In this document: positions 8,395 through 57,602 of the stretch, in pieces
How positions within the stretch are numbered: the stretch's first letter is position 1
How the letters are laid out: each line of letters opens with the position of its first letter
From: a virus
Taxonomy: Duplodnaviria > Caudoviricetes
DNA length: 64,000 nucleotides
Reading direction: 5' to 3' (one strand)
IMG/VR virus record: IMGVR_UViG_3300005330_000014
Location: 32,001-96,000 of that record
Made by a program: the position numbers and the translations under genes
Notes under the pieces: generated by a model
What the model was told of the DNA's origin: nothing
Seen by the model: the letters and a program-made list of their open reading frames with translations, nothing else
Database searches by the model: none

Positions 8395-8616
8395 ATGAAA
8401 ATACATTTTCCTTTCGTTTATCCGCCGATTTCTTGGGGCGACGTAATCTATCTTATTAACATACGATTTCTTTTTTGGCATTTCCAAATACTTGAAGAAA
8501 CTAGAAAAAGAGGATATTGGATTTGTTTGAAATTCAATAAAACTCAATTGTGGCTATTCTTAATCGCTTTAAGATATAAGAAACAGTATTGGACAGCTTT
8601 TAAAAACCATCAATAA
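8395..8616 (+). CDS. Hypothetical protein
   Basis: Packed ORF. Confidence 0.55.
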   Translation: MKIHFPFVYPPISWGDVIYLINIRFLFWHFQILEETRKRGYWICLKFNKTQLWLFLIALRYKKQYWTAFKNHQ

Positions 8617-12947: not shown

Positions 12948-13012
12948 GTACAAAACAAAAGCCGCGCAACCTAGCTAGTTAGCAGTTATGCTGTAGCATA
13001 GGCGCGCGGCTC
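12948..13012 (-). terminator. Long-hairpin terminator followed by TGTAC
   Basis: GCCGCGC...GCGCGGC stem, TTTTGTTTTGTAC. Confidence 0.65.
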
Positions 13013-17191: not shown

Positions 17192-17235
17192 GTACAAAAG
17201 GAAACCCCCACTGCCGCGCGGACAATGAGGGTTTC
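17192..17235 (-). terminator. Terminator followed by TGTAC
   Basis: GAAACCC/GGGTTTC stem, CTTTTGTAC. Confidence 0.65.
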
Positions 17236-17470
17236 AAGGTGCTTTGCCTTGCGGCCTATCTTTGAGTTTTAAGCCATCGGCATTTCAGGCGGGCTGTCCG
17301 TTAGGACTTTTATTTGTTTACTTAGTTATTTGTCAGAGACTATTTCCGCCTTCACTGCCCATTACATATCTGCTAGCTAGACAGACTCGGGGACTCGACC
17401 GACGGTTTATTTCAATTTGAGTTTTTCACTTTTCAACATCGCTCTTATTATTGAGCAGGTTATTTCTAAC
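17195..17470 (-). ncRNA. Candidate phage sRNA A (~275 nt)
   Basis: Own promoter and terminator; longest ORF seen 10 codons; multiple stems. Confidence 0.6.
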
Positions 17471-17476
17471 GAGTCC

Positions 17477-17505
17477 ATTTTACCATACCAATCCAAACGC
17501 GTCAA
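17477..17505 (-). promoter_or_regulatory. Sigma-70-type promoter
   Basis: TTGACG-N17-TAAAAT with extended TG. Confidence 0.85.
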
Positions 17506-17665
17506 CAAAAATTTTCAACTATTTTCAAAAATCTTTTTCCATCTTAATTATCCGCCCGAATTGATAGTTTGTTTTAATCTGTTTTAATCCGATTGTTTAG
17601 TTAATTAGTAATTAGGTTATTTGTTTTCTTCATTTAATTATTTAGTTGTTTAGTTATTTGAATCA

Positions 17666-27544: not shown

Positions 27545-27569
27545 TGTATTATTTAGTTAATTATTTAGA

Positions 27570-27749
27570 TTAAGCAGAAAGTGTCATTTCATCAGAATTA
27601 AGATATTTAATATATTCACGTTCTGTATAAATAGAAGCTAGTTTTTGTTCATGATGTTTTAACCGCGCAGCCAAACGTTTTGCGTCGCGAGTATTTTTTA
27701 CCGTGAAAATTTCGGGGCGGGTATGCGCGGAGTAGGCAATAACTTTCAT
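27570..27749 (-). CDS. Small hypothetical protein (likely leaderless)
   Basis: Manual 59-aa ORF MKVIAYSAHTRPE...; ATG 6 nt after -10 box. Confidence 0.55.
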   Translation of the reverse strand: MKVIAYSAHTRPEIFTVKNTRDAKRLAARLKHHEQKLASIYTEREYIKYLNSDEMTLSA

Positions 27750-27755
27750 ACCTTA

Positions 27756-27784
27756 AATTTAATCCCTTTTGTTTAATCCGTCAA
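27756..27784 (-). promoter_or_regulatory. Sigma-70-type promoter
   Basis: TTGACG-N17-TAAATT. Confidence 0.7.
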
Positions 27785-27821
27785 GAGAAATCTTGTGGAT
27801 TTTACCTTGTATATTTGACCA

Positions 27822-27860
27822 GTACAAACAGCAAGCCCGGCGCTTTTCGGGCACCGGGCT
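27822..27860 (-). terminator. Terminator followed by TGTAC
   Basis: AGCCCGGTGC-CCGAAAA-GCGCCGGGCT, TGCTGTTTGTAC. Confidence 0.7.
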
Positions 27861-28055
27861 CTATTGTTTCCGCGTTTCCTTGCTATATTTAACTCTAAGT
27901 TAACTAATTATTTTTCGGCTCAGGAGGCGGGGAGCGTCTTTCGACTCACGTATACTTCATTATAGTTTCCTTATTTAGTTTAATGGTTAATGGTTAATGG
28001 TTTAGTTACTTACTTTATTGCCGCCTAACTGCATGACACGCGGCCCATCCTTGGC
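27826..28055 (-). ncRNA. Candidate phage sRNA B (~230 nt)
   Basis: Own promoter and terminator; contains only a 4-codon ORF (MKYT) with an SD-like site; shares architecture with sRNA A. Confidence 0.55.
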
Positions 28056-28061
28056 AAATCC

Positions 28062-28090
28062 ATTTTACCACTTCAAATCCAATCAGTCAA
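28062..28090 (-). promoter_or_regulatory. Sigma-70-type promoter
   Basis: TTGACT-N17-TAAAAT with extended TG. Confidence 0.85.
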
Positions 28091-28119
28091 GAACTATTTT
28101 CAAAAATTTTTAATGCTCC

Positions 28120-28419: not shown

Positions 28420-28480
28420 GTACAGCAATCCGCCCGATTCGCTGCTCCTAGTCCATAGGCGGGGCAGTCAAATCGGGCGG
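28420..28480 (-). terminator. Long hairpin followed by TTGCTGTAC
   Basis: CCGCCCGATT/AATCGGGCGG. Confidence 0.6.
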
Positions 28481-28732
28481 GCGTCTTTATTCCGTGTTTT
28501 AGCGTTAAGTTCTAATTATATTTAATCTAGTATAACAATAACAAGTTTTTATTTAGTTATTTAAGGCGGTGAGCGGATTTTCATAAATTATTTAAGCGAG
28601 TTTCGCGTTTAGTTTTCGTATCCTCAGATACACAGTATGTCACTATTTAGTTAACTTGGCGGATTGGTGGCACTCTTCAATTAGTTATTTAGCTACATAT
28701 ATGAGGGATTTAGATTCCCTGAGTCGATTTAC

Positions 28733-28760
28733 AGTCTAGCATATCCGCCGGGACTGTCAA
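28733..28760 (-). promoter_or_regulatory. Sigma-70-type promoter
   Basis: TTGACA-N16-TAGACT with extended TG. Confidence 0.75.
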
Positions 28761-28830
28761 CGAAAATCTTTGATTTTTATTTTTGAAAAACTTTTGGGAG
28801 TTAGTTTCTTCCTCCCATTTAGTTAATTAT

Positions 28831-31303: not shown

Positions 31304-31558
31304 TTAGTTAACTGTTTGCGTATTCGTTACCGGCAAAATTACATATTCCATACAATCCCCGGCTTTTTCGATTTGCTCCAAACAATCGCGTTCGGTTAAG
31401 CCATCATCATACTTTTCAATATTTCTGCCATATTGATTTCGTGTAGGCTTTTTAAGTAAACCATTTTCGTCAACATAATAGATACGATATCTAAAATCGA
31501 CTTTTACTTTTCTTTCAATCGGTTTTTGAACAATTTTATGAATTCCACAGTTAGCCAT
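31304..31558 (-). CDS. Hypothetical protein
   Basis: Co-oriented ORF. Confidence 0.65.
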   Translation of the reverse strand: MANCGIHKIVQKPIERKVKVDFRYRIYYVDENGLLKKPTRNQYGRNIEKYDDGLTERDCLEQIEKAGDCMEYVILPVTNTQTVN

Positions 31559-31822: not shown

Positions 31823-32326
31823 TTATTTATTTCGCTTCTGACGGTATGGGAATAACTCGGGATATTTTGCACGATACCTGCAAACTATATTATTTATCTC
31901 TTTTATTTTCCATTTGGCTGACAGTTCTTGTACGCTTAAGCCATTTTTCCAATCAATAGAACGCTGTAAAGCTAATTCTTTAGACTGTTTTCTTATTCCG
32001 TCAAGCATGGTTGGAATTCCTAATGCATGTAATTTTGATTTTGCTTTGGAAGATATTTTACTACTTTTCCCGAGGATATAATCATTTAAACTATTTTTGC
32101 CCCGAATAGTCAAACGATTTTTACTAAAACCCTCCCATGCTCCACGCTCGGCCCATCTATCCAACATAATTTTAACATATTGTCTAGAAAATGGTTTCGC
32201 CCGGCCAATGACCTGTGCAGTAATCCGCCCTATATCAGCTAAAGTATTGAATTTAATATCCGGGGAATTTCTTGCTAATTCAATCATGAACCTATGAATC
32301 TTGCCCGGATTCTTAAAATGTTTCAT
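31823..32326 (-). CDS. Hypothetical basic protein (possible HTH)
   Basis: 167 aa; C-terminal LSVQELSAKW. Confidence 0.6.
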   Translation of the reverse strand: MKHFKNPGKIHRFMIELARNSPDIKFNTLADIGRITAQVIGRAKPFSRQYVKIMLDRWAERGAWEGFSKNRLTIRGKNSLNDYILGKSSKISSKAKSKLHALGIPTMLDGIRKQSKELALQRSIDWKNGLSVQELSAKWKIKEINNIVCRYRAKYPELFPYRQKRNK

Positions 32327-33533: not shown

Positions 33534-33598
33534 GATTTATTTTAAAGATTTTTAAACCCTATTTTTGACTCTATTTCTTTGTTTTGTTTGTTTAAATC

Positions 33599-55716: not shown

Positions 55717-57261
55717 TTAAATAGTCACTCTATTATACATTTCGTTATTGAGAGTTTCCAATACTTGGTCCAGTGGCGAATACTGACAACCACTAAGTAA
55801 AGTTTTAAATACGCTTGGAGAACTGCCGCTAACAAGCAGAATACCTTTTGCATCAGCCGTGGCTGCACAATTATTTTGTCTAGAATTTACATTCCAAAAT
55901 ACTAATTGAGGCATTTTATATCCAGCCGCCGCATATTTATCTTGAATAGTTTCTAGATTAGTTTTGCCGTTTTGAGGGCTATTAAATTCTACATCAGTAA
56001 TAACAAGAATTTGCGCGGGCATATCTTCCTGTTTGACATTACCTTTTACCGCTTGAATTAAAAGCATATCAAATACTGATTGTAAATTAGTTGAATAAGC
56101 AGGATTTTCTTGCAAACACCGGACTTTTTCTCGAATATTTGCGCCGACAACTTTTTGTAGCACTGGATTGTCTGAATAAGTAATAAAGTAGCCGCCGAAT
56201 GGTCCTTTGTTTTTTTCAGCAGTATAAATACCTAAACTGATAGCAGTTGCCATTGGACGGCCCATCATCGAACCGCTAACATCAACAACAGTTAAAATAT
56301 TTCTAGTTTTATCTTCCATGTAATCAGGAAGTGCATTCCACAAAATATCTAAGGTTTCATCATTATCCCGGGCCATGACTTTTTCAACAATTTCATAAGG
56401 GAAAAGTGCCCCGGCATTAATTTTAGTTTCCCCTTTTTTAACTGCATCAATAAACTTTTGATATCCGGTTTCATCATGCTTCATAAAGGCTTTTTTATAT
56501 CTTAAAGAAGCTTTAGATGGAACAGAGCGATAATTAATATCAGTCCAATGGTTATCTGACATTTTAACTTCAACTACATTAGAATAAGCGCGCAAAGCAG
56601 AAAGAGTTTTACGATATTGTTTAGGAGTCCAACCTAAATAGTGTCTGATTCGCGCCCCTAAAGCACGAGTAATAGTAGAAGAAGTATTTTCACTTGGCAT
56701 CCATTTAGCGCAAGTAGTAATTGGTTTATTGTCATTATACGCTTCTACGTCATTATTAAGAGAAACTTTAATGAATTCAAGTGCTTGATTTGCTACTTTA
56801 GTCCCGAAAAGTACAAATAAATCATCAAATCGACCATAATGAACAATATTACCCAAATTTTGGACTACAATTTCGGGATAATTATCGCCAAGATATTTAA
56901 GAATAATTCGGCAAGTGCGCCGTTCACCTTGTCCGCCGCGAATATTCCGAATATGGAATAACAATTTAATTGAAAGTAGCGGGTCTTCAGCAAAAGACTT
57001 AATAAATAAGTTAACAATATCTTGTTCAGGCCGGGAACGCAAGGCCGCACCCATAGCAAAGAAATCTACTAATGCGTTTAGAGTAGATTTATAAGTTGGC
57101 GCACCGTTTTCAGTCAAAGTCTTATTATCTTCTTTGATCAAACTAGAAAGAAGAGAGTTTGTAACCGGAGCGGCAGGCAATTTAACTTTAACTTTATTTG
57201 CTTTGCGTGGCGCAGTTACAAAATTATTACCAATTTTTTGTTTTTTAGTTGCAGTTTTCAT
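55717..57261 (-). CDS. TROVE/Ro60-like protein with C-terminal vWA domain (DUF2828 type)
   Basis: TENGA..YKST.NALVDFF, F..R.IRGGQGER, KWMPSE, VVDVSGSM MIDAS, ITDVEF, LVFWNV, SGSSP. Confidence 0.88.
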   Translation of the reverse strand: MKTATKKQKIGNNFVTAPRKANKVKVKLPAAPVTNSLLSSLIKEDNKTLTENGAPTYKSTLNALVDFFAMGAALRSRPEQDIVNLFIKSFAEDPLLSIKLLFHIRNIRGGQGERRTCRIILKYLGDNYPEIVVQNLGNIVHYGRFDDLFVLFGTKVANQALEFIKVSLNNDVEAYNDNKPITTCAKWMPSENTSSTITRALGARIRHYLGWTPKQYRKTLSALRAYSNVVEVKMSDNHWTDINYRSVPSKASLRYKKAFMKHDETGYQKFIDAVKKGETKINAGALFPYEIVEKVMARDNDETLDILWNALPDYMEDKTRNILTVVDVSGSMMGRPMATAISLGIYTAEKNKGPFGGYFITYSDNPVLQKVVGANIREKVRCLQENPAYSTNLQSVFDMLLIQAVKGNVKQEDMPAQILVITDVEFNSPQNGKTNLETIQDKYAAAGYKMPQLVFWNVNSRQNNCAATADAKGILLVSGSSPSVFKTLLSGCQYSPLDQVLETLNNEMYNRVTI

Positions 57262-57285
57262 AATTAGTTAGTAGTTAAAAAAGAC

Positions 57286-57336
57286 TAGACAAATTTTGTT
57301 TCTTATCAAGAGAAGTTTAATTACTGGATTTGTCTA
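57286..57336 (-). ncRNA. TROVE-associated hairpin repeat, copy 3
   Basis: TAGACAAA-TCCAGTAA...-TTTGTCTA. Confidence 0.7.
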
Positions 57337-57380
57337 AATTGATAAAGTTAAGGAAATGTTTAGGTATTAGGTAAATAGAC

Positions 57381-57427
57381 TAGATGCAGTTTGTTCCATG
57401 AAAAGGGTTAATTGCTGGATGCATCTA
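57381..57427 (-). ncRNA. TROVE-associated hairpin repeat, copy 2
   Basis: TAGATGCA-TCCAGCAA...AAAC-TGCATCTA. Confidence 0.7.
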
Positions 57428-57497
57428 AATTGAGAAAGTTTAAAGAGGTTATTTAGCTATAGCTTATAGTTTATATAATTTCAGAATTTAAAAATAC

Positions 57498-57548
57498 GAG
57501 ATTCAGTTTTTTCTTTACGTAGAAGATTTTGTTTGCTGGATGAATCTC
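57498..57548 (-). ncRNA. TROVE-associated hairpin repeat, copy 1
   Basis: GAGATTCA-TCCAGCAA...AAAC-TGAATCTC. Confidence 0.7.
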
Positions 57549-57574
57549 TGACCTATGACACAATGAAGGATTTT

Positions 57575-57602
57575 AGATTAGCATCTATTCCGCGATAGTC
57601 AA
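57575..57602 (-). promoter_or_regulatory. Sigma-70-type promoter for the hairpin-array/TROVE transcript
   Basis: TTGACT-N16-TAATCT with extended TG. Confidence 0.8.

Follow-up and report, generated by a model that had tools for sequence, protein, structure and literature searches.

Organization of the locus

The phage is represented by a single 208,233-bp virus record from uncultured material of soil origin (GC content 33–45%), which encodes a terminase, tail genes, a replicative helicase and a Ro60/TROVE-like protein and has a coding density of 89% on a crude ORF map. Coordinates given here refer, unless another genome is named, to the window, that is the whole 64,000-nt stretch of this record that was analysed (positions 32,001 to 96,000 of IMGVR_UViG_3300005330_000014). 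The genes around the locus all lie on the minus strand and form a string of small early-type ORFs without family matches. A 370-bp ORF-free gap (27750–28119) separates two of them, an 88-aa gene (28386–28120, minus strand) and a 59-aa gene (27749–27570, minus strand, ATG at 27749), and holds a putative transcription unit of ~230 nt, referred to hereafter as unit B, which extends from ~28055 to 27826 on the minus strand.

Unit B is preceded by an A/T-rich upstream promoter element, the 15-mer TTTTTGAAAATAGTT (28092–28106, minus strand), and by a sigma-70-type promoter of the form TTGACT-17 nt-TAAAAT with a TG extension (28062–28090, minus strand, 10 of 12 matches), which ranks among the best sigma-70 matches in a 16-kb scan and has its probable start site near 28056–28054. 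At its far end lies an intrinsic-terminator-like hairpin (27861–27833, stem of 11 bp, 8 of them GC) followed by TTGCTGTTTGTACT; the hairpin and its U-poor tail, UUGCUGUUUGUACUG (also read as UUGCUGUUUGUACU), occupy 27818–27861 on the minus strand, with GTAC at 27825–27822. A separate, weaker promoter-like site (27784–27756, minus strand, 9 of 12 matches) is located just upstream of the ATG of the next gene, so that unit B need not be the leader of the 59-aa gene.

Within the unit, the 5' arm of an outer long-range helix, CCGCGUGUC (28035–28043, minus strand), can pair with 27870–27878 over 9 nt (89% complementary, 8 of 9 pairs). Next comes GCAGT-T-AGGCGG (GCAGTTAGGCGG, 28021–28032, minus strand), the AGGCGG of which (28026–28021) serves as the 5' arm of an inner clamp and is exactly complementary to CCGCCT (27930–27925), 90 nt away; this 3' arm is itself part of a longer motif, CCCGCCT-N5-GCCGA (27915–27931, minus strand). 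The clamp encloses an A-rich loop of 90 nt (27931–28020, minus strand, 47% A) that is predicted to be mostly unpaired. The loop carries a perfect tandem heptad, AACCATT, in 3.3 copies (27980–28002, minus strand; TRF score 46, 100% matches), a four-codon frame behind an SD-like word, AAGGAAAC-TATA-ATG AAG TAT ACG TGA (27946–27972, minus strand, with the frame, MKYT, at 27960–27946), and, just 5' of the 3' clamp arm, a GTC-GAAA-GAC tetraloop hairpin of only 3 bp (27936–27945, minus strand). A further block, ATAG-CAAGGAAAC-GCGG (27870–27886, minus strand), stands ahead of the terminator and includes the 3' arm of the outer helix. The elements listed in the initial annotation (promoter, terminator, long-range pairing, three AACCATT copies, mini-frame and small hairpin) were all recovered, with matching coordinates, on the minus strand.

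Much of the loop consists of words that are common between the genes of this phage. TAAGTAACTAA and AACTAAATAA are generic intergenic words of the genome, and TAACTAAAT is present in 20 copies on the gene strand versus 4.6 expected. The 11-mer pattern TAANTAANTAA, 75 of whose 117 copies (64%) start in the 11% of the genome that lies outside ORFs, puts stops in all three frames (for example at 28801–28830, 27545–27570 and 28008–28018), and this TAA-rich filler seems to make up much of the intergenic spacers. The tandem heptad, which likewise puts UAA in all three frames when read as AACCAUU, is more than expected by chance.

No frame of at least 20 aa with a usable start was found in unit B, where stop-to-stop frames reach 44 aa at most; none of its frames resembles any protein, and the loop is full of stops. 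A hidden small protein was dropped as an explanation after this frame check. A replication origin with iterons was dropped as well, GC skew being monotonic across the window. When a 20-mer of unit B (nt 22–41) was searched against the JGI metagenome collection, only three unrelated contigs were retrieved, all of them chance matches, and no contig representing a B transcript was among them.

Predicted folding of units A and B

A second unit of the same phage, unit A, lies 10 kb away at 17195–17505 and had been paired with unit B in the initial annotation. The minimum free energy of unit B (−56.3 kcal/mol) is ordinary when compared with shuffled sequences (−51.3±4.0 kcal/mol, z=−1.26), while that of unit A is better than shuffles (z=−2.59). 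The same difference is seen in the clamp. The pairing of 28021–28026 with 27925–27930 is, as had been claimed, an exact 6-nt complement, but its predicted pair probability is only ~0.33 in unit B versus 0.97–0.99 in unit A, and the minimum-energy fold of B prefers the competing outer helix (28043–28035 with 27878–27870). By these predictions, unit B is only weakly folded.

The loops of the two units are alike in composition and openness, with 47–49% A and 70–76% of positions predicted to be unpaired; in unit B, the 75 nt from the 5' clamp arm to the small hairpin are ~70% unpaired in the model. The open single-stranded bubble described earlier agrees with this prediction as far as openness is concerned, but its sequence is made of the generic TAA-rich words described above, and the fold contains no two-stranded bubble.

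Translation starts and the MKYT frame

An SD-like word is found at −20 to −4 in only 26 of 339 ORFs of the phage, and the sequence upstream of its starts is ~45% A, with G falling to ~10% and T occupying position −1 in 64% of cases. The scarcity of SD-like words, together with the depletion of G, indicates that the genes of this phage are translated without Shine-Dalgarno pairing, and the SD-like word ahead of MKYT therefore carries little weight. In a position-weight model of true starts, the MKYT ATG ranks at the 22nd percentile among true starts and at the 88th among other ATGs. The combination AAGGA-N5–9-ATG has a frequency of 0.115 per kb per strand, and the occurrence of an SD-plus-ATG mini-frame in unit B is not more than expected by chance. 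Unit A has no counterpart of this frame and no ATG in its loop. With genes that are essentially SD-less, a mediocre ATG context and no equivalent in unit A, the SD-led ORF proposed in the initial annotation could not be upheld; we regard the MKYT frame as incidental and probably not a gene. A short frame of seven codons is also present in unit C, an ORF-free unit at 28420–28760 on the minus strand, directly upstream of the 88-aa gene; the start context of this frame ranks at the 36th percentile among true starts.

These observations bear on the idea that the open loop sequesters ribosomes or RNA polymerase, or that the MKYT minigene is translated and traps peptidyl-tRNA in the manner of lambda bar. 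The long unpaired A-rich loop does resemble the SD-less initiation regions of the phage itself (AACTAAATAA...ATG), the promoter is strong and AAGGA-N5–9-ATG is uncommon; however, SD-like words are found ahead of so few of the ORFs, the ATG of MKYT sits in an ordinary context and the partner unit lacks an ATG in its loop. Lambda bar minigenes are similar to unit B in that a frame with only a few codons between ATG and stop lies behind an SD-like word in a non-coding transcript. The bar effect calls for efficient initiation at an SD, whereas the phage carrying unit B has SD-less genes, and the MKYT frame is missing from unit A.

On the polymerase side, 6S RNA (RF00013, and 6S-Flavo, RF01685) shares with unit B a small size and an unpaired central region, from which the RNA polymerase idea arose. 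Nevertheless, 6S RNA is a long, near-continuous double helix with a bubble of two unpaired strands, whereas unit B is predicted to form one single loop, which the 6-bp clamp helix closes and after which the terminator follows, and no match to 6S or 6S-Flavo was found at E≤10. An assignment of unit B as a 6S RNA was rejected on these grounds, and with no two-stranded, promoter-like bubble in the fold and GGA at chance level we consider sequestration of ribosomes or polymerase, and equally a bar-like minigene, very unlikely. Unit B was also tried as a CsrB/RsmZ-type (CsrA) sponge and rejected, since by our own count it contains four GGA in 230 nt versus ~3.5 expected, with one GGA only, in CCAAGGAUGG near its 5' end, falling in a predicted hairpin loop.

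A short scaffold shared by units A and B

The 15-mer TTTTTGAAAATAGTT has only two exact copies in the genome, one upstream of unit B and the other upstream of unit A (17517–17531), and an exact 12-mer around the −10 element, TGGTAAAATGGA, is identical in the two. Judged by these sequences, the two promoters are clearly products of a duplication. The bodies of the units behave differently. With promoter and terminator removed, their best local alignment, the GCAGT...AGGCGG...AATA segment, scored 19, where shuffles averaged 19.4, and in 148 comparisons of unit A with other intergenic segments a score as good as that with B was reached 60 times. Global and lenient alignment schemes gave z values of 0.03–0.71, and a chained-block test with length-independent gaps gave z values of 0.9–2.0 versus shuffles and 1.5–2.1 versus 150 real intergenic segments; body alignments overall ranged from z=−0.2 to 2.0 versus shuffles. 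As these values lie within the shuffle range, the claim of a family fails or is marginal by alignment, and in the comparison that the initial annotation had itself proposed, the two units aligned no better than shuffled sequences or random intergenic pairs.

A different picture emerges from the clamp. In the body of unit A there is a single exact 6-bp helix whose loop measures 30–130 nt, namely AGGCGG/CCGCCT, and this only helix of A was taken as a fixed hypothesis in the search for further occurrences. Among 6,876 control windows of B length on both strands it was present in four, which overlap and represent one coding locus near 13.6 kb, and among 74 intergenic strands in none. The flanked forms are rarer still: GCAGT-N1–2-AGGCGG and CCGCCT-N5-GCCGA each have two occurrences only in 208 kb on both strands, one in A and one in B. 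In addition, both units have a small tetraloop hairpin 2–4 nt ahead of CCCGCCT (GUCC-UAAC-GGAC in A in the place of the GAAA hairpin of B), and the distances from the 3' core to the terminator are ~42 nt and ~54 nt in the two units. The pre-terminator block ATAG-CAAGGAAAC-GCGG is found in the same order in A, although this pattern was derived after seeing the pair and is weak evidence. The core motif, too, was defined after seeing the pair, so its nominal rarity is inflated by an unknown factor; GGCGG and CCGCC words are moreover 6- to 8-fold over-represented in the phage genome.

Units A and B are thus alike in their duplicated promoter, their terminator tail, the AGGCGG/CCGCCU clamp with its GCAGU and N5-GCCGA flanks, the tetraloop hairpin adjoining the 3' arm and an A-rich loop of equal composition. 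They differ in what stands ahead of the core (~115 nt with three hairpins in A, ~25 nt in B) and in the loop itself, which in A measures 53 nt and is devoid of both the ATG and the heptad repeat, whereas the 90-nt loop of B has both. We conclude that A and B have a short scaffold in common to a degree beyond chance and that the remainder has diverged too far to be aligned. Of the two-member family proposed earlier, what stands is this scaffold of promoter, clamp and flanks; the bodies are not alignable, and the link between A and B is narrower than first claimed, but real. MAFFT failed to put the shared motifs of the two cores in register, for which reason a descriptor search (any 6-bp helix, exact flanks) was used instead of a covariance model; its background was ~2.5 matches per Mb of strand, and none of its matches was convincing as a third member.

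The placement of the scaffold raises the possibility that unit B acts in cis as a leader, with the core working on the nascent transcript (by antitermination or processing) and tuning read-through into the downstream early genes, a logic that recalls the putL/putR or nutL/nutR pairs of lambdoid phages. The blocks that A and B have kept are concentrated in the 3' half, by the terminator, and in both A and B the core lies 40–55 nt upstream of it, at a similar spacing; two copies exist, each behind a strong early promoter, the promoter-like site downstream of B is the weaker one (9 of 12), and the U-poor tail suggests that the B terminator may be leaky. However, the downstream genes have promoter-like sites of their own, the core lies at ~+25 relative to the start site in B versus ~+115 in A, and neither an antiterminator protein nor a put-like double hairpin was identified. 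The put RNAs of HK022 (putL/putR) consist of two adjacent stem-loops, ~70 nt in length, and suppress termination. HK022 put and lambda nut resemble A and B in being two paralogous RNA elements per phage, each lying between a strong early promoter and a terminator, but put is made of adjacent stem-loops, whereas the core of B is predicted to be a clamp around a 90-nt open loop and an effect on termination is not supported. On balance we think it unlikely that unit B is a cis-acting leader.

Relatives in sequence databases

Searches of 50,697 GenBank phage records with A and with B (blastn), and with the 88-aa neighbour and a RuvB-like protein (tblastn), gave no match. When IMG/VR was queried with the flanking proteins of 88 and 105 aa, and with an alignment of the 88-aa protein and its one homologue, no relatives came up; the neighbouring gene has one identical and one 58%-identical copy on other contigs. 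IMG/VR scans for the 15-mer and for TTGAC...TGGTAAAATGGA produced >100 matches each, these patterns being too unspecific, and the promoter scans contained one related match, 359 nt long and 66% identical, which corresponds to part of the phage genome beyond the window. The core pattern with a loop of 60–90 nt had no match in IMG/VR.

A clade to which the phage belongs does exist, as its terminase has homologues at 62–83% identity (72–83% for P0004–P0010), and the contig of one terminase relative was binned as Flavobacterium (MAG). In several relatives the large terminase subunits (P0007, P0009, P0010, P0015 and P0021) are ~1,050 aa long and carry intein/homing-endonuclease domains (PF14528, PF14890); the terminase of the phage with unit B is intein-free and has 635 aa.

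The IMG/VR record G001 (167,664 bp), with a terminase 65% identical to that of our phage, shares 93 of the 339 ORFs in collinear order. Its slot syntenic with unit B, between homologues of the genes at 31304 and 26125, contains five small ORFs, with neither B nor the 88-aa gene detectable there, and the A/B core pattern was not found in G001. This genome has ORF-free promoter-to-terminator early units of its own, at 8.06–8.49 kb (~390 nt) and 12.2–12.9 kb (~700 nt), the latter following a homologue of the gene upstream of unit A. They have the same style of promoter and terminator but do not align with A, B or C, which suggests that units of this kind are habitual in the early regions of the clade and evolve fast.

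Unit B might also be a decayed early gene cassette, with promoter, initiation region, ATG and terminator still in place but the ORF collapsed to four codons; any transcription would then serve no function, and the likeness to unit A would reflect common descent and not selection. The loop does consist of the TAA-rich filler also found ahead of real genes, the start context of MKYT is within the range of true starts (22nd percentile), the neighbouring unit C also holds a short frame (seven codons, 36th percentile), the syntenic slot of G001 has ORFs only, and B is not conserved in the GenBank phage, G001 or IMG/VR searches. Yet no B frame resembles a protein, and the preservation of both clamp arms and their flanks in two copies amid an unalignable background suggests selection. 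Further to that, a stretch of 370 bp of junk would be unusual at a coding density of 89%. We find a decayed, functionless cassette an improbable explanation.

Comparison with known RNAs

At gathering thresholds, Rfam 15 identified four tRNAs only in the whole window, and no match was found between 27700 and 28900 on either strand at E≤10. Y RNAs were considered in view of the Ro60/TROVE-like gene at 55717–57261, which is followed by hairpins (57262–57600) carrying a loop handle of the AUCCAGCAA type. Unit B lies 28 kb from this gene and has no TCCAG word, and was rejected as a Y RNA or Ro60 partner.

Small RNAs encoded by phages are few in number, for the most part orphans and seldom understood; we are aware of almost nothing on small RNAs in phages of hosts that translate without Shine-Dalgarno sequences. 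The closest known counterparts of unit B are orphan non-coding RNAs of jumbo phages, as described for the Pseudomonas jumbo phage PA5oct, which has four such RNAs of 236–619 nt, ncRNA001–004 (PMC7318152). Like unit B, they are ORF-free, a few hundred nucleotides long, encoded by a phage of >200 kb and have no known sequence match or function (PMC7318152). The PA5oct RNAs were defined by RNA-seq and are without recognised promoters (PMC7318152), whereas unit B is known from sequence signals alone and has a clear promoter and terminator. Within our phage, unit B is a weaker candidate than unit A.

Possible role of unit B

We suggest that unit B is probably an orphan early non-coding RNA. Its strong promoter and strong terminator hairpin, both on the gene strand, support this reading, as do the missing reading frame, the separate promoter-like site ahead of the next gene and the core halves that only A and B possess; the clamp, predicted to be ~33% populated, the ordinary folding energy, the lack of a homologue in G001 and the unalignable bodies of A and B speak against it. 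In its fuller form, which we favour only tentatively and with somewhat less than even confidence, unit B would be a real, independently transcribed early non-coding RNA and a diverged duplicate of unit A, in which a clamp-and-flank handle surrounds a variable open loop and which acts in trans.

Under this scenario, unit B would be a self-contained early transcription unit yielding a non-coding RNA of ~230 nt. Units A and B would have arisen from the duplication of a cassette comprising promoter, RNA and terminator, followed by almost complete divergence. What would have been kept is a scaffold composed of the GC-rich 6-bp clamp AGGCGG/CCGCCU, the single-stranded GCAGU (5') and N5-GCCGA (3') flanks and the tetraloop hairpin by the 3' arm. 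The clamp would close a long, A-rich and largely unpaired loop, different in sequence and length between the copies. Clamp and flanks may thus represent a handle for a common protein or RNA partner, and the variable open loop a working surface, operating in trans either by base pairing or by titration of a single-stranded-RNA-binding factor. The four-codon frame and the heptad would be by-products of the TAA-rich loop filler. A search for targets of unit B by complementarity within the phage genome returned only chance matches of 12–14 nt.

A bolder version, which we hold to be a long shot, would make A and B the first two members of a class of phage RNAs that combine a conserved clamp-flank handle with a long, unpaired and variable A-rich loop mimicking the SD-less initiation regions of the phage and of its host, and that function early in infection as decoys (for the 30S subunit with S1, an RNA-binding defence protein or a nuclease) or as guide-like RNAs of a handle-binding phage protein. 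If A and B are real RNAs with a common handle, this small pair would lend itself to tests aimed at identifying a partner protein. For the time being the practical value of unit B is low, as it is a candidate from sequence only in an uncultured phage, but it could show how early transcripts are punctuated in this clade, by a conserved hairpin with a GUACUG terminator tail.

Transcription signals of the early regions

The promoter and the TGTAC terminator had been put forward as an architecture common to A and B. Both signals are present in the two units, but they also occur in other early units and in G001. The promoters of A and B fall into a GAAAA(A)TAG...TTGAC...−10 class, members of which are also found at 33577 and 26688, ahead of ordinary genes, and in G001. 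Across the phage, sigma-70-type sites are enriched upstream of genes (18 sense versus 6 antisense), in contrast to the Bacteroidota-type TAnnTTTG element (25 sense versus 48 antisense).

A hairpin with a T-run and GTACTGAT or GTACTGGT likewise ends other early units, both here and in G001. The tetranucleotide GTAC is depleted 3.6-fold in the phage (185 sites versus 669 expected) and 5.6-fold in G001. It follows terminator hairpins on the minus strand of the window at 12951, 16580, 17195, 17669, 19178, 27825 and 28420, and in G001 (L261) at 8478, 9778, 11457, 12173 and 16000. The TGTAC terminator is a clade-wide signal and not private to A and B. This punctuation by GTAC has been kept between phages whose common proteins are mostly only 25–65% identical.

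Unit C has a promoter of the form TTGACA-16-TAGACT with a CCCGGCGG cluster in the spacer and ends in a long compound terminator hairpin with TTGCTGTACT behind it. The unit also carries GAC-TG-CCCCGCCT, which recalls the 3' core found in A and B; it may serve the 88-aa gene as an attenuated leader. Both the phage (28733–28760) and G001 (L261, 7190–7290) have early promoters in which the spacer holds a GC cluster, TTGACAG(N)CCCGGCGGAT, and this suggests a conserved operator or discriminator-like feature.
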